The notes: generated by a model not told the origin, from the letters alone. Shown: positions 18,181-57,701, counted from the first letter of the stretch. The stretch is 63,668 bases of DNA from Moraxellaceae bacterium (GCA_049655345.1 JBASJP010000151.1:1-63668), one strand, 5' to 3'. A program made the numbers and translations.

Positions 18181-18458
18181 GGAAGGACCGGGGCGTTATA
18201 AGAGGCAATAAAATCATTAATAATCAATGGGTTACAAACTACTGTGCGGAATAACAGCAAAGATCAACGCCTTTAAAAACAATGGCTTGCAAACGCGTCT
18301 TAAAGCCGAATATGACGCCATTTATTCTTAAGAATTTTTAGTTATTTCGTCATCCTTGCTCGAAACAACAGGCTTTAACCCGCGCATTGCCAAAGGCCAG
18401 CGTGCCGCCGGCATTGCGCCGGCAAGGGTGATGGCAGGGAAACCTGCCACAAATGAAA

Positions 18459-18813
<355 letters not shown>

Positions 18814-18820
18814 GGCGCGG

Positions 18821-18849
18821 AGATTACGCAGGAGTCCACCCGGACACAA
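18821..18849 (-). promoter_or_regulatory. Candidate rnpB promoter
   Basis: Minus strand TTGTGT, 17-nt spacer, TAATCT, then 7 nt to the G that begins P1 (18813). It lies in the rsmI-rnpB spacer. Confidence 0.4.
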
Positions 18850-18867
18850 GGACAAGACGTGGGGAAA

Positions 18868-19710
18868 TCAGCCCTTCAGACCGAGCGCACGCTCATACAG
18901 CGCATTTTTCTTGAGTCCGGTAATGCTGGCCGCCAATGCTGCGGCCTGCTTTACAGGTAGCTCCTCCAGCAGGATGCCAAGCACCCGGTCCGCCTCCTGC
19001 CAGTCCTGCTCACCCACGGCCTCTGGCAATCCCTCCAGCACCAGCACTATTTCACCACGCTGCTGATCCGGATCAGCGCTTACCCACGCCAGCATCTCCG
19101 TAAGTGAGTACTGACGTACGGTTTCGAATGTCTTGGTCAGCTCACGCGCCAGCACAATGCGCCTTTCACCCCCCAGCACCGCCACCATGTCCTGCAGGCA
19201 CTCCACAATGCGATGCGGCGCCTCATAGAACATCAATGTGCGGGTCTCCCCCGCGAGTTGCTGCAGGCGCTCACGACGGCCTGCCGTCTTTGCCGGCAGG
19301 AAGCCCTCAAAAATGAAGCGGTCAGAAGGCAAACCTGCCGCCGACAGTGCCGCAATTGCGGCACAGGCACCAGGCACAGGAACCACTCGCAGGCCAGCCG
19401 ACTGTGCCGCCGCCACCAGCCGGTAGCCGGGATCACTGATTAGCGGCGTGCCGGCATCGGAGATGAGGGCAATGTCATCACCACGCCCCAGTTGGTCCAG
19501 CAAACCCTGCACCCGACCGGCTTCGTTATGGTCATGCACAGCCACCAGCCGCGTCGGAATATTGAAATGCTGCAACAGCCTCCCGGAGTGCCGTGTATCT
19601 TCCGCCGCCACCACCGACACCGCCTTCAGCGTGGCAACAGCACGCGGACTCCAGTCGTCCAGATTGCCAATAGGCGTCGCCACCACATACAGTACGCCCT
19701 TCTTTTGCAT
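18868..19710 (-). CDS. rsmI: 16S rRNA 2'-O-ribose C1402 methyltransferase
   Basis: ORF trimmed to ATG 19710 (280 aa). LYVVATPIGNLDD, AAEDTRHSG and SDAGTPLISDPG motifs match RsmI/YraL. Confidence 0.93.
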   Translation of the reverse strand: MQKKGVLYVVATPIGNLDDWSPRAVATLKAVSVVAAEDTRHSGRLLQHFNIPTRLVAVHDHNEAGRVQGLLDQLGRGDDIALISDAGTPLISDPGYRLVAAAQSAGLRVVPVPGACAAIAALSAAGLPSDRFIFEGFLPAKTAGRRERLQQLAGETRTLMFYEAPHRIVECLQDMVAVLGGERRIVLARELTKTFETVRQYSLTEMLAWVSADPDQQRGEIVLVLEGLPEAVGEQDWQEADRVLGILLEELPVKQAAALAASITGLKKNALYERALGLKG

Positions 19711-19729
19711 GATTGCCCCTGTGTGCCCC

Positions 19730-20818
19730 ATGTATTCCACTATTGGCCGGTGCATCGGCCTGCTGATCGCTCTGACAACCGGACTGGCAAACCCTGCCCA
19801 CGCCGCGCCTGTTGATGAGGTTGCCATCCTGCTGCCTCAAAAGGGACGGCTGACCCAGGTTGCCCAGACCATTCGTGACGGTCTGCTGGCTGCGTATTAT
19901 CAGGACAGCCAGACCCGCACCGATAGCCCTCGGCTGCGTTTTTATGACAGCAGTGATGTATCTGCCCCTGCACTGGTTGCCGAAGCCGTCGCTAATGGTG
20001 CCGATGCCATCATTGGTCCGCTGGAGCGTGAACAGGTACAGGCACTGCTGAACACCGGCAGCCCGCCTGTTCCCGTGATTGCCCTGAACCGTGCCGAAGG
20101 TGACCAGACCAACCTGCTCCAGATGGCACTCGCCCCCGAGGATGAAATTGCCACGCTGGCCTTGTGGATGCACAAGCGTGGCATACGGCGCCCGCACCTG
20201 CTGTTTCTGGCTTCCGATGCAGGCGCCACGCGCTTTCTTCAGCTGTTCGACGCGGCATGGCAAGCGTTTGACCTCACCCGGCCACCCAGGCATGCCCTTG
20301 ATGCCGCACAAAAAGGCGGCGTGGCGACATCAGTCAAAATGCTGAAGGACGCTGCCGGAAACAGTGACGGCTTCTTTCTGGCCAGCCCGGCGATTGCCAG
20401 CCAGGTACAGCCGGCGCTGACTTATTACAACAACACGCTCCCCCTGTTCACCCTTTCTGCTGCCTGGGACCCAGGTGCGGATGCCGCCACACAGCAGGAC
20501 ATGGAGGGTGTGGCATTTTGTGGGCTGCCCTGGCTGCTGGAAGGCGAGCGCCCCGAGCAAGCCGCATTGTACGCAGCCCAGCCACGTCCTGCGGCCAGTC
20601 ATGACCGGCTTTATGCCCTTGGTGCAGATGCATGGAGCGTGCTGCACTCTCTTGCTGCCCTGCAGCGCGGCAGCGCACTCCCGTTACGTACCGGCCTGCT
20701 CCATCTTGATGAAAAAGGCCAGCTTGTCCGTCTTCCCAGCTGCGCGGAGATACGCCATGGAATGGCAACCACCCTGTTCACCCCCGAGCCTCCCCGACCG
20801 GCAGCAAGCCGGCGCTGA
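19730..20818 (+). CDS. lpoA: LpoA/LppC-family penicillin-binding-protein activator, C-terminal domain only
   Basis: ATG 19730, Sec-type signal MYSTIGRCIGLLIALTTGLANPAHA, then VAILLPQKGRLTQVAQTIRDGLLAAYY (start of the periplasmic-binding-protein-like LpoA C-domain). Synteny is rsmI <> lpoA-yraN-diaA-dolP, as in E. coli. Confidence 0.75.
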   Translation: MYSTIGRCIGLLIALTTGLANPAHAAPVDEVAILLPQKGRLTQVAQTIRDGLLAAYYQDSQTRTDSPRLRFYDSSDVSAPALVAEAVANGADAIIGPLEREQVQALLNTGSPPVPVIALNRAEGDQTNLLQMALAPEDEIATLALWMHKRGIRRPHLLFLASDAGATRFLQLFDAAWQAFDLTRPPRHALDAAQKGGVATSVKMLKDAAGNSDGFFLASPAIASQVQPALTYYNNTLPLFTLSAAWDPGADAATQQDMEGVAFCGLPWLLEGERPEQAALYAAQPRPAASHDRLYALGADAWSVLHSLAALQRGSALPLRTGLLHLDEKGQLVRLPSCAEIRHGMATTLFTPEPPRPAASRR

Positions 20819-26403: not shown

Positions 26404-26477
26404 TGGCTGGGGAACAAGGATTCGAACCTTGACAGACGGTGTCAGAGACCGTAGTCCTACCGTTAGACGATTCCCCA
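26404..26477 (-). tRNA. tRNA-Gln (anticodon CUG)
   Basis: The minus strand folds by hand into a cloverleaf: acceptor TGGGGAA/TTCCCCA, D arm GTCT-AACGGTA-GGAC, anticodon arm ACGGT-CTCTGAC-ACCGT, T arm CAAGG-TTCGAAT-CCTTG, discriminator G and encoded CCA. The U1-A72 pair is typical of bacterial tRNA-Gln. Confidence 0.9.
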
Positions 26478-27561: not shown

Positions 27562-28704
27562 TCAGGCCAGTACAGCCCGGGAAATGATGGTCTTCATGAT
27601 CTCGTTGGTGCCCCCGTAGATGCGCTGGACACGGGCATCCGCCCACATGCGGGCAATCGGGTACTCCCACATGTAGCCATAGCCGCCATGCAACTGCACG
27701 CACTCGTCAATCACTTCACACTGCAGGTCGGTAATCATGTACTTGGCGGCCGCAGCCGTAGGCACATCCAGCTTCTTGTCCAGATGCAGCTCGAGGCAAC
27801 GATCCACGAAGACCCGGCCCTGCATCACCCTTGAATGCAGCTCCGCCAGCTTGAACTGGGTGTTCTGGAAGTCGGCAATATGCTTGCCGAAGGCCTTGCG
27901 CTCCTTCACATAGTCAATGGTGAGCTTGAGCGCACCCTCGGCCATGGCAATACCGTTCACGGCAATACCAAGGCGTTCCTGCGGCAGCTCCTGCATCAGG
28001 TAGATGAAGCCCATGCCTTCCTGACCGATGCAGTTGCCCACCGGCACCCGCACGTCCTGAAAGAACAGCTCTGAAGTATCCTGCGCCTTCATGCCGACCT
28101 TGTGCAGGTTGCGTCCCTTGGTGAAGCCGGGTGTTCCTGCCTCGACAATGATGAGGGAGGTACCCTTTGCACCGGCACTCGGGTCTGTCTTGGCCACAAC
28201 AATCACGATTTCGGCATGCTGGCCGTTGGTGATGAATGTCTTGGAGCCATTGATGACATAGTGATCACCATCACGTACAGCGGTAGTACGCACACCCTGC
28301 AAGTCCGATCCGGCACCTGGCTCGGTCATGGCGATGGCACCCACCATTTCACCCGTGATCATTTTTGGCAGGTACTTCTGCTTCATTGCCTCACTGCCGT
28401 AGTGCTCAATGTACGGCGCCACAATATCCGTATGCAGCCCAAAGCCGATGCCGGTCAGTCCAAGACGGGAAATCTCTTCCATCACGATAGCCGAGTACAG
28501 GTAGTCTGCACCAACGCCACCAAACTCTTCCGGCAAACAAGGGCACAGCAGGCCCTGCTCCCCTGCCTTGTTCCAGAGCGCACGATCTATCTGGCCGTTC
28601 TCTTCCCACTGCGCGTGAAACGGCACCGCCTCTTTTTCAAGAAACTTCACCACCATGTCACGGAAAGCCTCGTGGTCTGAATTGAAAATACTGCGCGGGA
28701 TCAT
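27562..28704 (-). CDS. Acyl-CoA dehydrogenase
   Basis: 380 aa with the ACAD layout. AMTEPGAGSDLQG motif and the C-terminal IYGGTNEIM motif with a catalytic-base region. Substrate not assignable. Confidence 0.9.
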   Translation of the reverse strand: MIPRSIFNSDHEAFRDMVVKFLEKEAVPFHAQWEENGQIDRALWNKAGEQGLLCPCLPEEFGGVGADYLYSAIVMEEISRLGLTGIGFGLHTDIVAPYIEHYGSEAMKQKYLPKMITGEMVGAIAMTEPGAGSDLQGVRTTAVRDGDHYVINGSKTFITNGQHAEIVIVVAKTDPSAGAKGTSLIIVEAGTPGFTKGRNLHKVGMKAQDTSELFFQDVRVPVGNCIGQEGMGFIYLMQELPQERLGIAVNGIAMAEGALKLTIDYVKERKAFGKHIADFQNTQFKLAELHSRVMQGRVFVDRCLELHLDKKLDVPTAAAAKYMITDLQCEVIDECVQLHGGYGYMWEYPIARMWADARVQRIYGGTNEIMKTIISRAVLA

Positions 28705-48578: not shown

Positions 48579-48757
48579 ACACGGCTTTGCGTATCACCCT
48601 CTGCGGCGAAGTCCCCGCCCACTTCCCTGTCAGAAAATACCTGCGCGCCAGGGCCATAAAGCTGTCGTATGCGGTCATCGCCATCCACCCTCCCCTGACG
48701 GAATAATCTCCTGCAACAGGCAGTCATGCGACAGCCCTTACTGGCAGGAGAGCATTG

Positions 48758-49540
48758 ATGAGCTATCAGGATAAAGTCGTTTTCGTGGCCGGCGGCACCA
48801 GCGGCATCAATCTGGGGATTGCCGAGGCCTTTGCCCGTGCAGGTGCCAGAGTAGCGGTACTGAGCCGCAAGGCGGACAAGGTTGAGGCTGCCATCACGCA
48901 CCTGCGTTCCCTGACCCCTGACGTACTGGGCTTCAGTGCCGATGTCCGTGATTACGATGCCGTTGCTGCCGCGCTGGCAGACACTGCTGCGCAGTGGGGG
49001 CCGATTGACGTGGTCATTTCCGGCGCGGCCGGCAATTTCATGGCGCCAGCCATCAACCTGTCGGCAAACGCATTCAAGAGCGTAGTGGATATCGACCTGC
49101 TCGGTACATTCAACGTCATGCGTGCCAGCTGGGAGCATCTGCGCAAACCGGGTGCGGCCGTCATCAACATCACAGCTGGCCAGAGCTGGCTGCCCACCCC
49201 CATGCAGATACACGTCTGTGCCGCGAAAGCCGGGGTGGACCAGATCACCCGGACACTGGCCATCGAGTGGGGACCTGCCGGGGTGCGAGTCAACTCGATT
49301 GCACCAGGCCCCATCAGCGGGACCGAGGGCATGGCACGACTGGCCCCCACGGAGGCATCGGAAAAAGCCTGGACCGACAGCGTGCCATTGAAGCGCTTCG
49401 GCACCAAAGCGGACATCAGCCGGGCAGCGCTCTGGCTTTGCTCGGATGACGCAAGCTACATCACTGGCGTGGTACTGCCGGTGGATGGCGGTTTCACATT
49501 GTGGGGGTCGGGTGCCATCGCGCATGCAACGCAGCAGTAG
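48758..49540 (+). CDS. Short-chain dehydrogenase/reductase (2,4-dienoyl-CoA-reductase-like subgroup)
   Basis: Cofactor motif AGGTSGINLGIA. GGAG RBS 7 nt before ATG 48758. NITA and VCAAKAG motifs resemble the DECR-like SDR branch; substrate unknown. Confidence 0.85.
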   Translation: MSYQDKVVFVAGGTSGINLGIAEAFARAGARVAVLSRKADKVEAAITHLRSLTPDVLGFSADVRDYDAVAAALADTAAQWGPIDVVISGAAGNFMAPAINLSANAFKSVVDIDLLGTFNVMRASWEHLRKPGAAVINITAGQSWLPTPMQIHVCAAKAGVDQITRTLAIEWGPAGVRVNSIAPGPISGTEGMARLAPTEASEKAWTDSVPLKRFGTKADISRAALWLCSDDASYITGVVLPVDGGFTLWGSGAIAHATQQ

Positions 49541-49584
49541 CGGGATGCCTCTGCTATCATGGGCTCCTTCCACTGGAGGCTCCC

Positions 49585-50160
49585 ATGTCCCGTCGCCACT
49601 CCCTGCATTCCGTGCATAACGAAATTGATGACTTTGAAGATGCTGGTCTCAGCAAGACCGAGCAGAAGAAAGCCATGGAGCGGCTGCAGGCACTTGGCGA
49701 GCGTCTGGGTGCCCTGAGCACGGCACGCCTGAAAAAGATGCCTATCTCGGAAACGTTGTTTGTGGCGCTGGAAGAACTGAAGCGCCTTAAGGCCCACGAA
49801 GCCGTGCGACGTCACAAGCAGTACATCGGCAAGCTGATGCGTGACGAGAACGAGGACGCCATTCTGGGTGTGCTGAATCCGCTCGCCAATCCCATGCTGA
49901 ACAAGCAGATGGACATGCTGGCCGAGCGCCTGCTGACGCAGGGTGATCCTGCTATCAATGATGCCGTGCGCCGCTATCCTGCCGCCGAACGCCACACGCT
50001 GCGCCAGCATGTGCGGGCCGCACTGAAGGAACAGCAGACGCTGGCAGAAATGCCTCCTGCCGCACCGGTAGCGGATGGTGAGACAGTCGCCGAACCGGAA
50101 CTGCCGGCCCGCCGGAAGCTGCTGACCTATCTGCGCGAAATCGCAGCACTCGTTGACTGA
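49585..50160 (+). CDS. yjgA: Ribosome-associated DUF615 protein YjgA (DarP)
   Basis: ATG 49585 (GGAGG RBS). SKTEQKKAMERLQALGERL...RRHKQYIGKLMR...LLTYLREIA aligns by eye with E. coli YjgA. Confidence 0.85.
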   Translation: MSRRHSLHSVHNEIDDFEDAGLSKTEQKKAMERLQALGERLGALSTARLKKMPISETLFVALEELKRLKAHEAVRRHKQYIGKLMRDENEDAILGVLNPLANPMLNKQMDMLAERLLTQGDPAINDAVRRYPAAERHTLRQHVRAALKEQQTLAEMPPAAPVADGETVAEPELPARRKLLTYLREIAALVD

Positions 50161-50174
50161 CGCAGTGGCCGCAA

Positions 50175-51224
50175 TCAGATTTTCATCTGCTCACTGAACA
50201 GGCCACTGCCACCTTCCTGTCCGAACCAGTCTCCGATTTCAACCTGAAACTCGCGTTTCTTGAGACCATTCCCCACCGCAAACAGGTAGGCGGTATCCGC
50301 CATTGCCGGCACCAGGCCGACCACCTCACGCCCAAGGCGACTAAGCGGATGCACCGGCATGGTCAACTGCAAGCCATCACCGCGAATGAACAACGCCTTG
50401 TTCTGACAACGCATGACAGCACGAAAACCTTCGCGTGAGACGGATCTTAGGGTGACCATGCCCTTGTTCTCGTCCCCCATCAGACCCATGTCGCGCAACT
50501 GCATGAACAATGGCTCATGAATGTCTGCATTGAAATAACCGGGGGCATCCCGACAGATGAACCCGCCAAAATCCAGACGCGCAGCCAGCATCAGAGCCTC
50601 TACATCACTGCGCGAGAGCGTGGCAAGAAATGCAAGGGTCCGCAGGCTATGCGAGCCAGGCTGTCGTACTTCATCAACCAGAACGCGCGCCCACAAGATC
50701 TGGAAGTCCTCGGCCACCGCACGTGCCGCCGATTCCTGCCAGCGCAACAACCAGTCCGCATCCACGGGGCGATCAGACAGGCTCTGCAGATCAATCGTCT
50801 CGGCCAGCAGGTCGGCACGCAAACCGATACGTCTGACGTTGAGCGTGCGACGCAAGGTCTGGATATCGGCATCCAGCCGCGCATCACGCAGTGCCTTGGC
50901 AGTACTGGGTACCCGCAGGATGTCGAGAGGATCATCCGGGGCCTGCTCGATCACGGAGCTGAAACGAATCGTCGAGATGTATTCGTCATCAGGCCTGTCA
51001 ACAATCTCACCCTGGATATTGAAGCGCTTGCGCCCCGCATGAAGATCATCAAGCTCGGCCAGCATGGCGGCAACAGCGGCCAATTCGCTCTCGCGCACCT
51101 TGTGCACATCCTTGCCACCCTGACGCAAACTCCACGGCGGCAACATGGCCGAGTCACCACCGCCAAACAGGGTATTCCAGAGCTTGTCAGCCAGCCGCTG
51201 TCGTAATGGCAGGTCACCGGTCAT
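50175..51224 (-). CDS. Hypothetical protein, DUF2806-like
   Basis: ATG 51224 lies 7 nt after the HMGR stop (TGAgacgtatATG); 349 aa. The central block DADWLLRWQESAARAVAEDFQILWARVLVDEVRQPGSHSLRTLAFLATLSRSDVEAL matches my recollection of the DUF2806 signature (DxxW...LWArILagEvxxPGsfSlRTL..L..Ls). No catalytic motif recognised. Confidence 0.65.
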   Translation of the reverse strand: MTGDLPLRQRLADKLWNTLFGGGDSAMLPPWSLRQGGKDVHKVRESELAAVAAMLAELDDLHAGRKRFNIQGEIVDRPDDEYISTIRFSSVIEQAPDDPLDILRVPSTAKALRDARLDADIQTLRRTLNVRRIGLRADLLAETIDLQSLSDRPVDADWLLRWQESAARAVAEDFQILWARVLVDEVRQPGSHSLRTLAFLATLSRSDVEALMLAARLDFGGFICRDAPGYFNADIHEPLFMQLRDMGLMGDENKGMVTLRSVSREGFRAVMRCQNKALFIRGDGLQLTMPVHPLSRLGREVVGLVPAMADTAYLFAVGNGLKKREFQVEIGDWFGQEGGSGLFSEQMKI

Positions 51225-51231
51225 ATACGTC

Positions 51232-52401
51232 TCACTTGCGATTACGCCCAAGCTTGTCGTGGCTGGACACCCACTGGTCAGCCACAATGGCGGAGGAAAG
51301 CGACAACTCGCCGCACAGCACAGTGGCGGCGACAATCTCGGCAAGTTTCCGGGCCTTACCATCGCCGTAGCAGCCCATCACTTCGAGGCACTCGCGCTGC
51401 GTAGGAAGACCCGTACCGCCGCCATAGGACGCCACAATCAGTGCGGGAATGGTTGCCGAAAAATAATAGTCACCGTTGGGCCTGAGTTCGCCATGCACAA
51501 ACCCGGCTGACGACTCCGCCACGTTTGCCACATCCTGGCCACAGGCAATGAACATGGCGGTAATGCCATTGGCAAAATGCGCCCCGTTGTTCACGGAGCC
51601 GGCCATCAGCGCGCCCATGTTGGACAGCTGGCGCTGCCGGAAGAGCGCCTCGCCCGAGGTATGCATGACATCGCGGATCAGTGCAGCCGGCAGGGTGATT
51701 TCGGCCACCACACGCTTGCCGCGCGTATGCAGGGCGTTCACGTGCGAGTGTTTCTTGTCGGTATCAAAGTTGGCGGCCAGCGAGAAGTGCTCAAGCCCGG
51801 CCGGTTTCTGCGCCAGAATCCACATGCAGGCTTCGCGCGTTGCCTTGGACACCATGTTCTGGCCGGCGGCATCGCCCGTGGTGTAACAGAAACGCAGCCA
51901 GCGCATCTTTCCCATGCTGTATTGTTCGATATGCCGCAGCTTTCCCGAGCGCGTAGTGGATTCTGCTGCCGCACGAATGGCCGGCAGGTTTGCATCCACC
52001 CAGACACCAAAGTCACGTGCATGGCGGGCATTCTCAAAAACAAACACCGGCGCGCGCTGCATGCTGTCGTCAATCACGGTGGCAATGACGCCACCTGCTT
52101 CGCGCGTGAGTCGCATGCCACGGTTGTAACTGGCCAGGAGGGTGCCTTCGGTTGTCGCCATCGGCACATAAAACTCGCCTGCCGCGTGCTCGCCATTAAC
52201 GAGTAGCGGGCCGGCAAAACCCATGGGGATCTGGGCAACGCCAGCAAAAGACTCGATATTTCCCGGCAATACGGCAGGATCAAATGAAAAGCTGCCGGTA
52301 TGGGCAAGGGCCGCACCGGTTTCATCGGAAACCACAGCGCGACGTGCGGCCGCCATGTCGCGGGTATAGTCGTTGTCTGTGTCGCGAGGAAGTTTTTTCA
52401 T
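51232..52401 (-). CDS. Class I (eukaryote/archaeal-type) HMG-CoA reductase, soluble catalytic domain
   Basis: Class I motifs NIESFAGVAQIPMGFAGPL, VPMATTEGTLLASYNRG, TGDAAGQNM, NFDTDKK, GRGKRVV-like TRGKRVVAE, ACGQDVANVAESS, GGGTGLPTQ, VLCGELSL and VSSH. Start set to ATG 52401 (389 aa); the ORF-track TTG at 52443 has no RBS. Confidence 0.88.
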   Translation of the reverse strand: MKKLPRDTDNDYTRDMAAARRAVVSDETGAALAHTGSFSFDPAVLPGNIESFAGVAQIPMGFAGPLLVNGEHAAGEFYVPMATTEGTLLASYNRGMRLTREAGGVIATVIDDSMQRAPVFVFENARHARDFGVWVDANLPAIRAAAESTTRSGKLRHIEQYSMGKMRWLRFCYTTGDAAGQNMVSKATREACMWILAQKPAGLEHFSLAANFDTDKKHSHVNALHTRGKRVVAEITLPAALIRDVMHTSGEALFRQRQLSNMGALMAGSVNNGAHFANGITAMFIACGQDVANVAESSAGFVHGELRPNGDYYFSATIPALIVASYGGGTGLPTQRECLEVMGCYGDGKARKLAEIVAATVLCGELSLSSAIVADQWVSSHDKLGRNRK

Positions 52402-52465
52402 TGTTTTTGTTGTTCTTGTGAGTCGTTTGCTGCTGCCTGCCAATGATGCCAGACACCCTGCCGAC

Positions 52466-52930
52466 TCATGTCAGCGGTGGCATGAACTCGGCCAGCTTGT
52501 CGGAAGTCTTGCGCAAATTGATCGAGAGCAGGGAGGCAACGCCCTTGAGGATCTTGATGCCGATTTCCGGATGCAGCTTGAGGATCATCTCGAAGCCCTT
52601 GCGCGTGAGAACGATCAGACTGGACGAGGTGCAGGCGCGGATGCTGGCAGAGCGGGTCAGCTTGTCAATCAGCGCCATCTCGCCAATGGAGCCCCCCTTG
52701 GCCAGCGTGGTGATGACAACCGGCTGGGCATTCTGGTTGAACTTGATGACGTCGAGCGCACCCGAGGCAACAAAGCAGACATAGTCGCCCTTCTCGCCCT
52801 CCTTGAAGACGAACTCGCCGGGCTCGATCTTGTTGAAGAACATGTACTTCTCAATGGTCTGCAGCTCCTGGGCATTCAGACCGGAAAAGATGGGAATCAG
52901 ACTCAGATGGTCCGACATACGATCGCTCAT
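52466..52930 (-). CDS. Stand-alone cyclic-nucleotide-binding (CAP-family) domain protein
   Basis: 154 aa. Beta-roll with the phosphate-binding cassette GGSIGEMALIDKLTRSASI and a GAGGAAG RBS. No DNA-binding or enzymatic domain follows. Confidence 0.85.
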   Translation of the reverse strand: MSDRMSDHLSLIPIFSGLNAQELQTIEKYMFFNKIEPGEFVFKEGEKGDYVCFVASGALDVIKFNQNAQPVVITTLAKGGSIGEMALIDKLTRSASIRACTSSSLIVLTRKGFEMILKLHPEIGIKILKGVASLLSINLRKTSDKLAEFMPPLT

Positions 52931-52991
52931 GGGACTTCCTCGGGAGACAGCAGGACCGGCCTGAAGCGGCGTCTTGTTCCTGTCACTGTCC

Positions 52992-53020
52992 TATTTAGCT
53001 GAAAGCGGCCCGGTTGTCAG
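52992..53020 (-). promoter_or_regulatory. Weak candidate sigma70 promoter for the cNMP-binding/HMGR/DUF2806 module
   Basis: Minus strand CTGACA, 17-nt spacer, TAAATA. The -35 element overlaps the nitrilase stop codon. Confidence 0.25.
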
Positions 53021-53844
53021 CGAATTAGTCGATGCTTTCGTACAGGCATGCGGTTTTGCAGGCTGACCTGTTCGTCGCGGTCCCAACGGGCCAGTACAAA
53101 ACCCGCTCCATCGGTCACCTGCTCCGCCAGCACCCGCCCCCAGGCATCAATGATCTGCGTATGCCCCCACGTCTGGCGCGACGGGTTATGCCGGCCGCCC
53201 TGCCCGGCACCAACCACCATGACCTGGTTCTCGATGGCACGGGCCCGCAACAGCACCTGCCAGTGCGCCTCCCCCGTGACAGCGGTAAACGCGGCCGGGA
53301 CGGTGACCAGCCCTGCCCCCATGCCCACCAGTGCACGGAACAGCTCGGGAAAGCGCAGGTCATAGCAAATCGTGAGCCCTATGCAGCCGAAGGGTGTCTC
53401 CACACACACCACCTCATCACCAGGCTCGAAGGTTGCCGACTCCCGGTAGGCTCCCTGTGAATCCGGCACATCCACATCAAAAAGGTGAATCTTGTCGTAA
53501 CGTGCCACACATTCGCCGGTGGCGCTGATGACGTGACAGGCAGTCCTGACCCGTCCGTCAGGCACCAGCGCGCCATCCGGACGACTGGCTGCCGGCAGGG
53601 TGCCCGCCACAATCCACAGGTCCAGCTCCCGTGCGAGGGCGGCAAGCCACGTCAGTATCGAGGGAAGTTGCCGGGCAACCTCGCGATACTGCGCCGCATC
53701 AAACACGGCAAAATTCTCCGGCAGTACTGCCAGACGCGCACCGGCAGCGGCAGCCTTCCGCAACTGCTGCTCAGCGGCATCAAGATTGGCCGCCAGCCCA
53801 GGCCCCGAACAGAGCTGTATGGCTGCAATCAGGACATGACTCAC
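53017..53844 (-). CDS. Carbon-nitrogen hydrolase (nitrilase superfamily)
   Basis: Glu-Lys-Cys triad contexts LPENF, YDKIHLFD and ICYDLRFPE. ATGA overlap with yhdP. Confidence 0.9.
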   Translation of the reverse strand: MSHVLIAAIQLCSGPGLAANLDAAEQQLRKAAAAGARLAVLPENFAVFDAAQYREVARQLPSILTWLAALARELDLWIVAGTLPAASRPDGALVPDGRVRTACHVISATGECVARYDKIHLFDVDVPDSQGAYRESATFEPGDEVVCVETPFGCIGLTICYDLRFPELFRALVGMGAGLVTVPAAFTAVTGEAHWQVLLRARAIENQVMVVGAGQGGRHNPSRQTWGHTQIIDAWGRVLAEQVTDGAGFVLARWDRDEQVSLQNRMPVRKHRLIR

Positions 53845-56800
53845 GGCTGCACTCCTGATGCCTGTGGAGGAATCGCAGGACGGGATTTCGCACCCACCTT
53901 TTCCACCAGCGGGCTACTCCAGTCTCCCGAAATACGATAATGCATGACAGTGGCTTTCTTGATCTGCCGCTTCAGGGCCATTTCGGCTGCCGCAACCGCG
54001 CCTCCGACAAGTGGCCCTGCCACCACCACGGCGGCCAGCGGTACGGCACTGGATACCGGCACATTCACCGTAAACAGCTGATCCATTTTTTGTCCGGCCA
54101 GATCCAGCTGTCCCTCGCCATGCGCAGAAAGTGACGGCCCCTTGAGATCAAACACGGCACGCGGCATTTGCCCCGACTGCAGGTTGCCATTCAGCGTGAC
54201 CGCATCAAAGGAAAGCCCCTTGAGTAGCACATCAGAGAAATCGCCCCGGAGGCGGCGCCGAATGTTTTCAATATCCACAAGCCCGAAGACACGACTGGCA
54301 CTGGTGGCCGCATTCACGTTGAGCAGGCGTCCGTTTTCAATACGCATCGCCAGCGTGCCATCCAGCCCCTTCAGGGCAATTGACTGCGGCGAAGAAGGCC
54401 ATGACAGATCCACCTCTGCCCACGCCTTCGGACTGTCCAGCGTGGGAGCAAAGCGCAAGGCCTTGAGCAAGCCGGCAACATCCTGACTTGTCGCCACCCC
54501 GCGCAAGCGTGTGCTGTCCCCACCGCGCCATTGCCAGTCGAGGCGACCATCAAAAGCCGCAACTGCGGTCCTGAGCTTCAATTCATCCATGCGCACACCA
54601 TAAGGGCTGGGCGACAGCCGGACCGCTCCGGACATCTGACCAAACCCAGGATACTGGCGCATGCGCAGTCCTTCGACGCTCACACTGACCGGCCTGGTGG
54701 AAGGCAACGCTGCATTGCCGGAAACTGCTGCGACTGTGTCCGGCATGCCAGGCAAGGGCCAGTGCAACCGCGTGATCGCCAGTTCGCATTCCTTGCCTTC
54801 CGCATCCGGCCACAGCAGTGTGCCGGCCAGATCCTCATTGGTCAGCCCGACGCGCCAGGCGGTAGCTTCCCTTTTCACGGACAGCCGTGCGTTGCCAAGA
54901 CGCCAGCCATTGGCCTCCATCTCGCGCGCCTCAATCTCAAGCCGTGTCAGGCCGGGCAACCTGGCGCTGGACACAGTCCTTGACGTGCTTTTCTGCAGGC
55001 GATCCAGCCATGGCTGCCAGTCCGTCAGGGACAGTCTGGGCACCCTGCCCTCAATCTCGATGCCGGGAGCGGATGGCCAGCCAACATCGTTGCTGTCGAG
55101 CCTGAGCAGGGCCGCATTGAAAACGCCATCACGCCAGACGAGCCCCCCACTCAACCGGCGCCCCAGTTGCAGTCGCGCCATCTGTTCCACGCCACCCAGC
55201 GAGGACTGGAGGCGGAAGGGCAGCGGTGTCACTCCCTTGCCCAGCGGCGCAGGCAAAAGAATGCTCATGCCCGCAAGCGAAGAGGTCACCTGCAACTGTG
55301 CGGGCTGATTGTCAGCAGGAATCCTGATACGCGCCTGATAGGGTGCTTCACCACTGAGCGCCTGCCACAGCGGGCCACCCAGCCACCCCTGCAGGGCGGT
55401 CACGCCGACGCGCCCGTCGACATCCACCTGCACCTGCTGCAGCACGCCCTTGCGGACGGTGCTGCCGATTCTTGCCATAACCGGGGCGCCCAGCATGCGC
55501 CCGCTGAGGGCATCTGCTGTCAGCCCGGCTTTAGTGGTATAGCGCACCTCGCCCCGCAAGCCATCTACCAGCAAGGACTGTCCGGGCAGGAGCAGCTGGT
55601 TCTCGTCCAGCACGGCTTTTACACTGACGTCCGCCGTTTGCGTCTGCGCGGCCAGAGGAATTTCAAGCGCCAGTTGTCCGTTCAGAACCCCTTTGACCTG
55701 CAACGCCTCCGAAAGTGACCCTGTGTGCTCACGCAACGGACTCTCCCGGAACAACCGGACAAGATCCGGCCCGTAGGACCGGAACTCGCCGCTCACCGCA
55801 AGCCGGGGATGCCGCAGGTCCGGAATATCCGCCCGCAGCGTATGGGCCACGGTTGCATCAAGCAGCCTGGCCTGCCGCCCCTCGACGTTCAGGCCCCGTC
55901 CGTCAATGGTCACCACCCCATCGAGATTTTGCAGCGCAGGCCATCCCGGCAGGTAATCCAGCGTGGTCCCATTCACCTCGAAACGCATCAGCTGGCGCAT
56001 CGGAGGCTGCCCGTCCCTGTGCGATACCGGCCCGTCGAACAGGAAGTCTCCACGCGTCACCGTGCCCGCCACCAGCGACCGGCGCAACCAGTCAATTGCC
56101 TTGTCACCCGCAGGTGGCCAAGGCACGTAACGCCAGGAGCTGGCCACACGGGCATTGGTCAGCCTGGCCATCAGGGACAGCTCGGCGGCATGAGGGTCGG
56201 CACGGGGTATGTCCACGCGCAAAACTGCCTGGCCTGCCGCATCGGGGTTTTTCACCAGCAGTCGATCACTTTCCAGATGCCAGCGCTCCGGACTGACCTG
56301 CATACGGACAACCCCTCGCAGATAGTCCAGCGCGACCGGCTCACGGAAAACCTGCCTAAGATCCAGCCCACCGGCTTTTGTATCCAGTGCCAGCAGTGTC
56401 TGCTCCGGCGTCCAGCGAGCCCAGCCGGTCAGGTTGTTTCCACCGGGAAAGCGGGTGGTAGCATGAAGGCCAATGCGCTCAAAACGGGTACTAACAAGAC
56501 GCGGCGACCAGTGTCCCTCCGCATCTGAGGACAACGACACCCTCAATGCAGGAATCCGGCCCACCGGTGTCGCTTCACGCATCCAGTCGGCAAGGCTTAC
56601 AGGCAAGGTCAGGCGATTGAGCAGCACGGCTGCCGGAGCCACCTCCAGACCCGCCACGGCCACCGTCAGCTCGCCGGGCTTGCCCGCGATAGCCACGGCA
56701 GAGGCCGGCCAGGCAATGTTGTCCACCTGAGCCGCCAGATGCTGTGCCGACAGCGTCCACCCCTTGTCCGTACGTGCCCAGGCAAGCTCGCCACGCACGG

Positions 56801-57701
56801 AGTTCAGGACATGATTGCCATGACGGCTGCGGAATACGGCCTGACTCAACCGGGGTCGCGCCTGCAGCGCCATCAGCTGCCCACGGGTAAAGTGCAGCCA
56901 GAACTCGCCGCCACCGGTTACCTGCTGAAGACCTATGCCAGCCACATCCGTGCGTGGCAGCCATGCATCCAGCCGCATGGACGGCAGGCTTAGCCAGGCC
57001 ACCAGCACCCCCTTGTGCCACTCGGTCGGCTCCCCCTGCAGACTCATGTTGATGGCCGCCGGATGCATCATGCCCTCCAGCCGCACATCACCCGCCAGGC
57101 GATGGCTCCGGCCATCATTGCGATTAACCAGATTGATGCGATTGAAATGAAGAACGGGATATCCCTGCAGGGCAAGCTCAAGCCGGCTGTCCTCGATCGC
57201 CAGCAAGGGCTGTCTCAGGGCCGCCTGTATCGCACGTTTGGCGGCCGCAGGATCCGTCTGTGCCAGCGATGCCATCTCCCGCAACCGTAACTGCCCGTCA
57301 GGCAGCTGGTCAAAGTGGAGATCAAGGCCACGGACACGCACATCAACACGGGGTTCAAACGAAATCAGGCTTTGCCAGAGCGAGGGTCGCAACTCCAGAC
57401 GGGGAATCAGCAGTAACGTTGATGCCGGCACAGCCGGATTCTGCAGACGCAACCCCTCCACCAGAAAAAAGGGCGTCACTCCCTGCCAGCTGCCTGTCAC
57501 CCGTTCGATACGAACCGGAAGGCCGATCACCTGCGTCAGTTTTGCCTCGATTTCTGCATGATAGCGGCTGGTCGCTGGGGCAAACTGACGACCAAGCCCC
57601 ACCACGATGGCCACCAGCACCAGCAGAACCAGCGCCAAGGTAAGCAGCTGGTGCCAGCCCCACAGGGCAGCATGACGCATGGTGTGCCAGTTCAGGGCCA
57701 C
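53841..57701 (-). CDS. yhdP: AsmA-like envelope lipid-transport protein YhdP
   Basis: 1286 aa with an N-terminal TM anchor and a long beta-rich body. Conserved position downstream of rng. Confidence 0.88.
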   Translation of the reverse strand: MALNWHTMRHAALWGWHQLLTLALVLLVLVAIVVGLGRQFAPATSRYHAEIEAKLTQVIGLPVRIERVTGSWQGVTPFFLVEGLRLQNPAVPASTLLLIPRLELRPSLWQSLISFEPRVDVRVRGLDLHFDQLPDGQLRLREMASLAQTDPAAAKRAIQAALRQPLLAIEDSRLELALQGYPVLHFNRINLVNRNDGRSHRLAGDVRLEGMMHPAAINMSLQGEPTEWHKGVLVAWLSLPSMRLDAWLPRTDVAGIGLQQVTGGGEFWLHFTRGQLMALQARPRLSQAVFRSRHGNHVLNSVRGELAWARTDKGWTLSAQHLAAQVDNIAWPASAVAIAGKPGELTVAVAGLEVAPAAVLLNRLTLPVSLADWMREATPVGRIPALRVSLSSDAEGHWSPRLVSTRFERIGLHATTRFPGGNNLTGWARWTPEQTLLALDTKAGGLDLRQVFREPVALDYLRGVVRMQVSPERWHLESDRLLVKNPDAAGQAVLRVDIPRADPHAAELSLMARLTNARVASSWRYVPWPPAGDKAIDWLRRSLVAGTVTRGDFLFDGPVSHRDGQPPMRQLMRFEVNGTTLDYLPGWPALQNLDGVVTIDGRGLNVEGRQARLLDATVAHTLRADIPDLRHPRLAVSGEFRSYGPDLVRLFRESPLREHTGSLSEALQVKGVLNGQLALEIPLAAQTQTADVSVKAVLDENQLLLPGQSLLVDGLRGEVRYTTKAGLTADALSGRMLGAPVMARIGSTVRKGVLQQVQVDVDGRVGVTALQGWLGGPLWQALSGEAPYQARIRIPADNQPAQLQVTSSLAGMSILLPAPLGKGVTPLPFRLQSSLGGVEQMARLQLGRRLSGGLVWRDGVFNAALLRLDSNDVGWPSAPGIEIEGRVPRLSLTDWQPWLDRLQKSTSRTVSSARLPGLTRLEIEAREMEANGWRLGNARLSVKREATAWRVGLTNEDLAGTLLWPDAEGKECELAITRLHWPLPGMPDTVAAVSGNAALPSTRPVSVSVEGLRMRQYPGFGQMSGAVRLSPSPYGVRMDELKLRTAVAAFDGRLDWQWRGGDSTRLRGVATSQDVAGLLKALRFAPTLDSPKAWAEVDLSWPSSPQSIALKGLDGTLAMRIENGRLLNVNAATSASRVFGLVDIENIRRRLRGDFSDVLLKGLSFDAVTLNGNLQSGQMPRAVFDLKGPSLSAHGEGQLDLAGQKMDQLFTVNVPVSSAVPLAAVVVAGPLVGGAVAAAEMALKRQIKKATVMHYRISGDWSSPLVEKVGAKSRPAIPPQASGVQP

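Follow-up and report, generated by a model that had tools for sequence, protein, structure and literature searches.

The 63,668-nucleotide (nt) stretch of DNA from a Moraxellaceae bacterium (GCA_049655345.1, JBASJP010000151.1), called the window here, raises a question at positions 50,175 to 52,930. In the ORF reading of the window, three open reading frames (ORFs) on the minus strand fill this block. They encode a stand-alone cyclic nucleotide monophosphate (cNMP)-binding protein, a homologue of class I hydroxymethylglutaryl-CoA (HMG-CoA) reductase (HMGR) and a DUF2806-like protein. A sequence-only reading of the window had taken them for a three-gene accessory module. What does an HMGR homologue do here, and do the three genes belong together? 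The most likely answer is that the block consists of three independent genes, located within a variable slot of a Moraxellaceae-type chromosome or next to it, and is not a cassette, and that the reductase is of the FcrA type.

FcrA is a monophyletic offshoot of class I HMGR, an HMGR-derived fatty acyl-CoA reductase (Grossi et al. 2025, ISME J, PMC11948995). Using NADPH, it converts fatty acyl-CoA with chains of at least C14 to fatty alcohol; HMG-CoA is not reduced, and the enzyme shows no sensitivity to simvastatin. The alcohol goes to wax esters or ether lipids. FcrA is found in many bacteria without the mevalonate pathway, chiefly Gammaproteobacteria and Actinomycetia, and it co-occurs often, not obligatorily, with genes for wax ester synthase/diacylglycerol acyltransferase (WS/DGAT) or ether-lipid synthesis. 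The catalytic residues Glu559, Lys691, Asp767 and His866 (human numbering) are kept in FcrA. Ser684, the pocket Lys and Leu862 discriminate HMGR from FcrA: all FcrA have a bulky residue at 862 (Trp in Natronomonas pharaonis), the position of the pocket Lys generally has a small residue (Gly411 in Np-FcrA), and Np-FcrA has Glu360 at the Ser684 position. Pb-FcrA has been characterised and Np-FcrA modelled (PMC11948995). The pocket lysine is printed as "Lys795" in PMC11948995; the spacing to the Asp and the human sequence point to Lys735, and this number is used here.

The reductase of the window was aligned with the solved class I HMGRs 6hr7 and 8ecg. The catalytic residues, human Glu559, Lys691, Asn755, Asp767 and His866, are all kept as E50, K216, N278, D290 and H381. 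The HMG-pocket residues Ser684, Lys735 and Leu862 are replaced by A209, S260 and W377. W377 lies four residues ahead of H381 and is invariant in 10 of 10 aligned homologues. S260 lies 30 residues ahead of D290, which is the spacing of Gly411 to Asp441 in Np-FcrA. The Ala/Ser/Trp pattern is seen in nine of the ten homologues, including those of Agitococcus, strain HdN1 and Isoalcanivorax; the tenth differs in having Ala in place of Lys735. The reductase starts at the ATG of MKKLPRD, and its homologues are all 389 aa long with the same start. Databases name the protein HMG-CoA reductase. Its score against the class I model TIGR00533 is 348 bits, below the 442-bit cut-off, and the class II model TIGR00532 is matched with 29 bits (cut-off 260).

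Among 1.84 billion cluster representatives, searched exhaustively, 113 complete 50%-identity representatives are nearest to the reductase. Position 862 is Phe, Trp or Tyr in 104 of them, Lys735 is kept in only three, and the full set of catalytic residues is kept in 111. Both PDB sequences have the full Ser/Lys/Leu triplet, as do two distant representatives. Leu862 is also kept in six others, most of which cluster with the PDB sequences. At position 684, Glu is present in 55 and Asp in 13 of the 113; the Ala of the reductase is not acidic like the residue of most clade members. In an unbootstrapped neighbour-joining (NJ) tree of anonymous representatives, the basal group, which stands apart, is made up of the proteins keeping Ser684 and Leu862, including both PDB enzymes. 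The reductase is placed in the Trp sub-clade of the aromatic-862 clade, beside proteins bearing PF25653 and at a great distance from the Ser/Lys/Leu sequences. Both the residue pattern and this clade placement are read directly from the data analysed here.

The nearest representatives, P0214 and P0216 (54–58% identity), bear the N-terminal domain PF25653 (HMG-CoA_red_N). P0217 has an N-terminal extension of equal length, judged by length and not by a Pfam scan, together with the Glu/Gly/Trp pattern of N. pharaonis FcrA. These domains and extensions would fit the alkyl-carrier domain at the N-terminus of the characterised FcrAs. Elsewhere in the clade, fusions to AMP-binding domains are seen, some of them with a PP-binding domain as well, for instance in P0235 of Enterobacter kobei, and such fusions can be taken as Rosetta-stone evidence that the substrate may be an acyl thioester.

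The fusions surveyed (P0235, P0225, P0227, P0244, P0229, P0270 and P0255) include N-terminal AMP-binding with or without PP-binding, an AfsA hotdog domain, and C-terminal APH/EcKL kinase-like domains. The kinase-like domains are about 400 aa long, and such fusions are numerous among the representatives of about 900 aa. We know of no description of APH/EcKL kinase-like fusions to HMGR- or FcrA-like domains.

The sequence suggests that the reductase is an FcrA-like, putative NADPH-dependent fatty acyl-CoA reductase yielding fatty alcohol. It shares with FcrA the class I HMGR domain with catalytic Glu, Lys, Asp and His intact, the replaced HMG pocket, Trp at 862, a small residue at 735, and a solitary gene. 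Its substrate and physiological role would be those of the characterised FcrA of 'Candidatus Promineifilum breve' and Natronomonas, from which they are taken by analogy. The sequence-only reading had doubted that the reductase serves isoprenoid biosynthesis, and this view is supported here. The puzzle of a pathway-less HMGR is already answered in print by the FcrA family (PMC11948995).

The distribution of the reductase was surveyed by scanning 185,579 species genomes with the reductase alignment, which gave 80 loci with at least 73% identity. The carriers are Moraxellaceae, Alcanivoracaceae, Ketobacter and strain HdN1. Those in Moraxellaceae are Perlucidibaca, Paraperlucidibaca, Agitococcus, Fluviicoccus, Aquirhabdus, Alkanindiges and many metagenome-assembled genomes (MAGs). 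None of the 80 loci has a neighbouring gene for HMG-CoA lyase, synthase or kinase. More generally, no mevalonate-pathway gene is present among the ORFs examined in the 63.7-kb window, as the first reading had also noted, or within 10 kb at the 80 loci. No mevalonate genes would accompany the reductase because it would be an FcrA-type enzyme and not an HMG-CoA reductase.

It could be considered instead that the protein is a genuine HMG-CoA/mevalonate oxidoreductase. It would then form mevalonate from HMG-CoA derived from leucine or isoprenoid catabolism, or convert scavenged mevalonate to HMG-CoA for a lyase. Pseudomonas mevalonii oxidises mevalonate to HMG-CoA, which is cleaved by HMG-CoA lyase. 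The host taxa are generally known to degrade hydrocarbons and lipids, isoprenoid ones among them. The strong PF00368 match, the complete catalytic residues and the database name agree with such a function. Canonical class I HMGRs (human 1DQ9, Methanothermococcus 6HR7 and Arabidopsis 8ECG) are of the same fold family, with 36–45% identity, and have the catalytic residues as well as the motifs DAxGxN and GGGT in common with the reductase. However, none of the residues holding the carboxylate and the branched chain of HMG is kept: Ser684, Lys735 and Leu862 have become Ala, Ser and Trp. The score is under the cut-off of TIGR00533, a curated class I equivalog model, and the pathway partners are missing at all 80 loci. 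Characterised FcrA with the same changes has no HMG-CoA turnover (PMC11948995). This function is quite unlikely.

Two contexts of reductase homologues back the FcrA-like reading weakly. In Fluviicoccus keumensis (L045; L numbers are locus labels of our collection), a WS/DGAT gene (18409–19917; PF03007 and PF06974) is located 7.2 kb downstream of the reductase homologue. The closest relatives of this WS/DGAT are in Nevskiales, not in Moraxellaceae. No WS/DGAT gene is found in the window or within 10 kb at the other reductase loci. The second context is the plasmid pBGP9 (239 kb) of Alteromonas macleodii, where a 71%-identical copy of the reductase (L177; NZ_OX359244.1 78999–80165) is located downstream of a cluster of thermostable-hemolysin, AMP-binding, iron-containing redox enzyme and short-chain dehydrogenase/reductase (SDR) genes. 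This plasmid copy shows that the reductase gene is horizontally mobile.

Whether the three genes form a module was examined by three routes: contigs encoding DUF2806-like homologues, the 80 reductase loci, and a metagenome scan with the cNMP-binding protein. At the reductase loci, neighbours were counted by tblastn with the proteins of the window. The order CN_hydrolase–cNMP–reductase is seen in 18 of the 80 loci, with identity of YhdP to that of the window down to 44%. The remaining 62 share none of the neighbours of the window, and their genes were called by codon usage and clustered. Their neighbours are lineage-specific housekeeping genes (MetRS, ErpA, FadL, FadH, malate synthase G, MsrA/B and a PF10118 hydrolase), and this clustering found no recurrent partner of the reductase across lineages. 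Among the 18 loci, the DUF2806-like gene comes after the reductase in six. In nine, the reductase is followed directly by DarP, by a gene for a Sel1-repeat protein, or by something else, and in three the contig ends there. The six are also the only ones among all 80 loci, so that 74 have no DUF2806 neighbour. The linkage claimed for the trio reduces, beside the reductase, to 18 loci for cNMP and six for DUF2806. Except in close relatives, homologues of the three genes are not neighbours elsewhere, an outcome that the sequence-only reading itself had named as speaking against its module.

The close relatives show how the block varies. A relative with 68% identity in the DUF2806-like protein (L015) has all three genes. 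The tight reductase–DUF2806 junction is also seen in L016–L018 and L096–L097, and the gap is 125–155 nt in L022 and L031. In L008–L014 (78–79% identity), the order mreBCD–maf–rng–yhdP–CN_hydrolase–cNMP–DUF2806 is kept and converges on DarP–HPr–RapZ–HPF–rpoN, with no reductase gene between cNMP and DUF2806. The pair CN_hydrolase–cNMP is seen in 11 more metagenome loci (L099–L109), which have neither the reductase nor the DUF2806-like gene. There, YhdP is only 30–36% identical to that of the window, and the cNMP-binding protein is 83–86% identical. For this reason, the cNMP gene can be counted as part of the backbone, within which it is strongly conserved. It closes the conserved series mreBCD–maf–rng–yhdP–CN_hydrolase and is not variable cargo. 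As it is present without the other two genes, the block is not a three-gene accessory module.

The claim that the junction is insertion-prone holds: the slot between cNMP and DarP contains different cargo in different relatives, namely the reductase with or without the DUF2806-like gene, a gene for a Sel1-repeat protein, or genes for type IV pilins; it can also be empty. Examples are two type IV pilin genes ahead of DarP in L099 (4600–5700), a Sel1-repeat protein in L029 (11330–12088), and a gene in L101 (6546–7739) which looks like a methyltransferase by eye.

Loci without the reductase retain its traces. YhdP is 60–65% identical to that of the window in the reductase-less L008–L014 and in the reductase-bearing L018 and L019 alike, and the reductase is also present in more distant genomes (YhdP 44–50%). 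Relaxed tblastn found no reductase remnant in the relatives without the gene. Alignment and blastn-short revealed short nucleotide scars of both reductase ends in the cNMP–DUF2806 spacer. Upstream of DUF2806, L011 (9800–10010) keeps AATCGCAAGTGA, the four codons with which the reductase gene ends (Asn-Arg-Lys-stop). It is followed by the usual 7-nt junction, and this scar of 26 nt is 96% identical to L097 (E 5e-8). L011 also keeps AAAAAATAACAAGAACGAAAA, which represents the leader and the start of the reductase gene; here, the ATG has become ACG. Similar but weaker traces are seen in L009 (9845–10010). The scars of both ends indicate an internal deletion of the reductase gene in these lineages. 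The lineages with the deletion keep an intact DUF2806-like gene, and one such protein is found in 157 blocks of the collection. Since DUF2806 remains intact after the deletion, the reductase and the DUF2806-like gene can be considered independent of each other.

The DUF2806-like protein matches PF10987 with 54.8 bits, above the 24.5-bit cut-off, at model positions 30–101 of 221 only. All 46 aligned family members match PF10987. Against TIGR03899, the score is 50.8 bits, below the cut-off of 155.65 bits. The AlphaFold2 (AF2) model is confident (pLDDT 84.5). It begins with helices, continues through a disordered linker into a helical bundle with the DUF2806 match, and ends in an alpha/beta domain. 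A fold search of the PDB with this model gave nothing below E 0.5. Among viral models, the only significant structural neighbour is BFVD A0A291AUV8, an unnamed 229-aa viral protein (E 1.8e-9, 16% identity, TM-score 0.70 on the target). The protein has no match in phage genomes by tblastn, and neither it nor the reductase is matched by PADLOC 2.0.0 or PHROG models. Pfam Abi_alpha is absent even from the weak matches (E ≤ 1) of all 46 members.

Homologues of the DUF2806-like protein with 58–62% identity are solitary elsewhere (L001–L007 and L178) and usually converge on an enoyl-CoA hydratase gene (L001, L003, L005 and L178). In the MAG JAQSDB01, the reductase is on contig 2 (L029) and the DUF2806 homologue on contig 8 (L003). 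In another MAG, the reductase (L020) and the DUF2806 homologue (L178) are about 17 kb apart, apparently on the same 171,419-bp contig. DUF2806-domain genes are also common on conjugative plasmids of about 31–33 kb of Enterobacteriaceae (H2–H15). A full-length homologue with 27.5% identity is located directly upstream of a restriction endonuclease gene on plasmid pI of Paraburkholderia dioscoreae (L176; 6001–8473).

At the level of the domain, the only relative characterised by experiment is Belisama, a toxic DUF2806 protein of abortive-infection defence in Vibrio cholerae (10.1101/2024.07.02.601686). Like the proteins of DUF2806 and TIGR03899 and like Belisama, which belongs to Vibrio integron cassettes, the protein of the window has a helical core of about 70 residues and is a single-gene unit changing its genomic location; members of the family are present on plasmids and in a phage. 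Unlike them, it matches a third of the Pfam model, and has the extra N-terminal helices and the C-terminal alpha/beta domain. Its divergence tracks the host backbone and thus the host phylogeny; it is single-copy amid housekeeping genes, with no defence-island context and no match to defence models. These facts count against a defence role. The DUF2806-like gene is a stand-alone, separately inherited gene not dependent on the reductase. In this sub-lineage, it is probably co-transcribed with the reductase.

The tight junction might also mean that the DUF2806-like protein is a translationally coupled accessory of the FcrA-like reductase, for instance in substrate delivery or as a tether to the membrane or lipid bodies, replacing Lad or the acyl carrier protein (ACP). 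A Shine-Dalgarno-like motif, AAGTGAG, is present within the 3' end of the reductase gene ahead of the DUF2806 ATG. The reductase lacks the accessory domains of its nearest relatives, and the arrangement is retained in L016–L019, L096 and L097. However, DUF2806 is intact where the reductase is deleted, it is unlinked in the two MAGs above, and 74 of the 80 reductase loci have no DUF2806 neighbour. In addition, the AF2 model has no recognisable lipid-binding fold. Such an accessory role is very unlikely; tight spacing (7 nt) in one genome is weak evidence for a functional module.

The cNMP-binding protein has an intact phosphate-binding cassette, GEMAL...TRSAS, with its Glu and Arg. Its nearest solved relatives are PKG/PKA-type cNMP-binding domains and stand-alone bacterial cNMP-binding proteins. 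With the stand-alone proteins (PDB 3gyd and 2mhf) and the domains of CRP, PKA and PKG, it shares the complete beta-barrel, the Glu and Arg of the cassette and the C-terminal helix. It differs in carrying no output domain, be it DNA-binding, kinase, channel or TIR. A transcription factor of the CRP/FNR type was rejected, as there is no C-terminal helix-turn-helix domain and NF008732 is matched with 42 bits (cut-off 266), in the sensor part only. A Pycsar-type, cNMP-activated defence effector was also rejected. The PADLOC matches (E 4e-10 to 8e-6) span the generic binding domain only, the protein has no TIR or transmembrane effector domain, and no cyclase gene is a neighbour.

The cNMP gene follows CN_hydrolase in 18 of 18 related genome loci. 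More distant homologues (42–45% identity; L111–L147, e.g., L139 5095–7091) are followed by a gene like those of sigma-54 enhancer-binding proteins, at a distance of 9–177 nt, with a one-base overlap in L147. Genes like CheX, CheC, CheR and CheY flank them, and the pairing is kept in 21 metagenome loci of lower-GC lineages. These sigma-54 activator and Che-like assignments are based on sequence motifs by eye, not on a profile search. The sequences suggest that the family could be a small signalling adaptor with no specific tie to the reductase. The protein of the window is probably a small receptor of cyclic AMP (cAMP) or cyclic GMP (cGMP) acting via protein contacts.

A lineage-specific regulatory pairing could still be proposed, in which the receptor steers the FcrA-like reductase, allosterically or at expression, by cAMP or cGMP, and with it the synthesis of fatty alcohol and wax esters. 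The same-strand adjacency in 18 species-level genomes, with YhdP down to 44%, and the intact phosphate-binding cassette are in favour of it, and the pairing of distant homologues with signalling genes suggests an adaptor for a nearby partner. However, the cNMP gene is equally conserved without the reductase (L008–L014 and L099–L109), 62 of the 80 reductase genomes have no cNMP neighbour, and the cNMP–reductase spacer varies from 42 to 470 nt among relatives. One ancestral insertion and vertical descent account for the adjacency. We regard this pairing as unlikely.

The sequence-only reading had proposed a sensor-effector cassette for conflict, stress or defence, in which the cNMP-binding protein senses and the reductase and the DUF2806-like protein act as effectors. 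The shared strand, the short gaps and the 7-nt junction agree with it. So do the variability of the slot among relatives, the defence role of Belisama, the DUF2806 genes on conjugative plasmids, one of them adjoining a restriction endonuclease, and the weak Pycsar effector matches of the cNMP domain. However, the three genes occur independently, the cNMP backbone gene is more conserved than its neighbours, and DUF2806 persists after the deletion of the reductase. The reductase and the DUF2806-like protein have no PADLOC or PHROG match, and the PADLOC matches of the cNMP-binding protein are to the generic domain only. The GC content is normal, and the sole Rfam tRNA is about 24 kb away. The cassette is highly improbable. 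A defence island or mobile element was also rejected, based on the normal composition, the distance to the tRNA and the housekeeping flanks; no search aimed at integrase genes or flanking repeats was made.

Several facts weigh against three independent genes with an FcrA-type reductase. The reductase is core-only (389 aa), without the Lad (PF25653) or ACP accessory domains of characterised FcrAs. Its position 684 is Ala, not the Glu of the published enzyme, so the chain length of the substrate could differ. WS/DGAT linkage is seen in only one related genome (L045), and a homologue search with the Fluviicoccus WS/DGAT gave mostly Nevskiales proteins, none tied to a reductase-carrying genome. 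The NJ tree, without bootstrap, is built of anonymous representatives with no verified FcrA sequence within. The absence of mevalonate genes covers the ORFs examined in the 63.7-kb window and the 80 loci (10 kb). The cNMP–reductase adjacency is seen in 18 species, and the 7-nt DUF2806 junction leaves room for a lineage-specific functional coupling.

The layout of the block and its neighbours is summarised in Table 1. The three genes, their domains (PF00027, PF00368 and PF10987, by profile search) and their strand agree with the first reading, and its gaps of 86, 64, 7 and 14 nt were obtained again on re-reading the sequence. The 14 nt separate the stop codons of DUF2806 and DarP/yjgA, which are convergent. 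DarP/YjgA marks the other edge of the variable slot and borders it in relatives too. On the opposite side, the synteny of CN_hydrolase is retained across relatives, and this gene overlaps the end of yhdP (53841–57701). The GC content of the block (0.57–0.62) is not anomalous compared with its flanks (0.58–0.66). The promoter and terminator scan found nothing above shuffle expectation in or between the genes of the block; the reported lack of a terminator hairpin is consistent with this, and the weak promoter-like element reported in the 86-nt spacer was not recovered. The Rfam scan found no RNA family within the block, and the single Rfam tRNA of the window is far from it, as the claimed absence of a tRNA at the block requires.

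The SDR gene between HPr and DarP is seen only in the nearest relatives (L016, L017 and L096) and at no other related locus. Close beside the block, this lipid-related gene is a second insert specific to the lineage. The RNase P RNA, the tRNA and the acyl-CoA dehydrogenase gene listed in Table 1 are housekeeping features.

Table 1. Genes, spacers and other features of the window
Feature	Coordinates	Strand	Evidence or remark
RNase P RNA	18460..18813	-	332 bits
tRNA gene	26407..26477	-	Rfam
Acyl-CoA dehydrogenase gene	27562..28704	-	best match acryloyl-CoA reductase AcrC, sub-threshold
SDR oxidoreductase, PRK07576 subfamily, 2,4-dienoyl-CoA-reductase-like	48755..49540	+	NF005752 407 bits, above cut-off
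DarP/YjgA ribosome maturation factor	49501..50160	+	PF04751 E 3e-35; NF003593 123 bits, above cut-off
DUF2806-like protein, 349 aa	50175..51224	-	PF10987 E 1.6e-14, residues 145-217 only
Spacer, reductase TGA to DUF2806 ATG	51225..51231	-	7 nt, gacgtat
Class I HMGR homologue, 389 aa, core domain only	51232..52401	-	PF00368 E 4e-122
Spacer, cNMP to reductase	52402..52465	-	64 nt; A-rich leader acaagaacaacaaaaaca ahead of ATG
Stand-alone cNMP-binding protein, 154 aa	52466..52930	-	PF00027 E 4.7e-19, residues 34-118
Spacer, CN_hydrolase stop to cNMP ATG	52931..53016	-	86 nt
CN_hydrolase, deaminated-glutathione-amidase-like, backbone	53017..53844	-	PF00795 E 3e-48; NF043013 257 bits, below cut-off

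Taking the three genes as independent, the following history can be proposed. The FcrA-type reductase would be a descendant of class I HMGR which keeps the NADPH-dependent four-electron reduction of a thioester, and the fatty alcohol produced would enter wax-ester or ether-lipid synthesis. The cNMP–reductase adjacency might be an accident of the landing site of the reductase gene, and the DUF2806-like gene may have come to sit 7 nt behind the reductase gene in this sub-lineage. The proposed product, fatty alcohol or aldehyde for WS/DGAT, is the same as that of AcrB/Acr1 and FarA of Acinetobacter and Marinobacter, related lipid-storing Gammaproteobacteria. Those enzymes have the unrelated SDR/Rossmann fold, and are analogous, not homologous, to the reductase.

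It is unlikely that in this Moraxellaceae clade the cNMP receptor, the translationally coupled DUF2806-like protein, or both have been recruited to a minimal FcrA, or that the core-only sub-clade with the Ala/Ser/Trp pattern reduces an acyl-CoA different from that of the characterised FcrAs. Recruitment, if true, would place the bacterial synthesis of fatty alcohols and wax esters under cyclic-nucleotide control or provide it with a new accessory subunit.

The annotation "hydroxymethylglutaryl-CoA reductase" implies a mevalonate step that is almost certainly non-existent in these bacteria. The FcrA-like label shifts the reductase to neutral-lipid metabolism, that is, the synthesis of fatty alcohols, wax esters and ether lipids. 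The hosts, Moraxellaceae outside Acinetobacter, Alcanivoracaceae, Ketobacter and HdN1, are environmental degraders of hydrocarbons and lipids, and wax-ester storage in these hosts matters both ecologically and biotechnologically. With at least 73% identity across families, the core-only gammaproteobacterial sub-clade would offer a convenient minimal FcrA for biochemistry.

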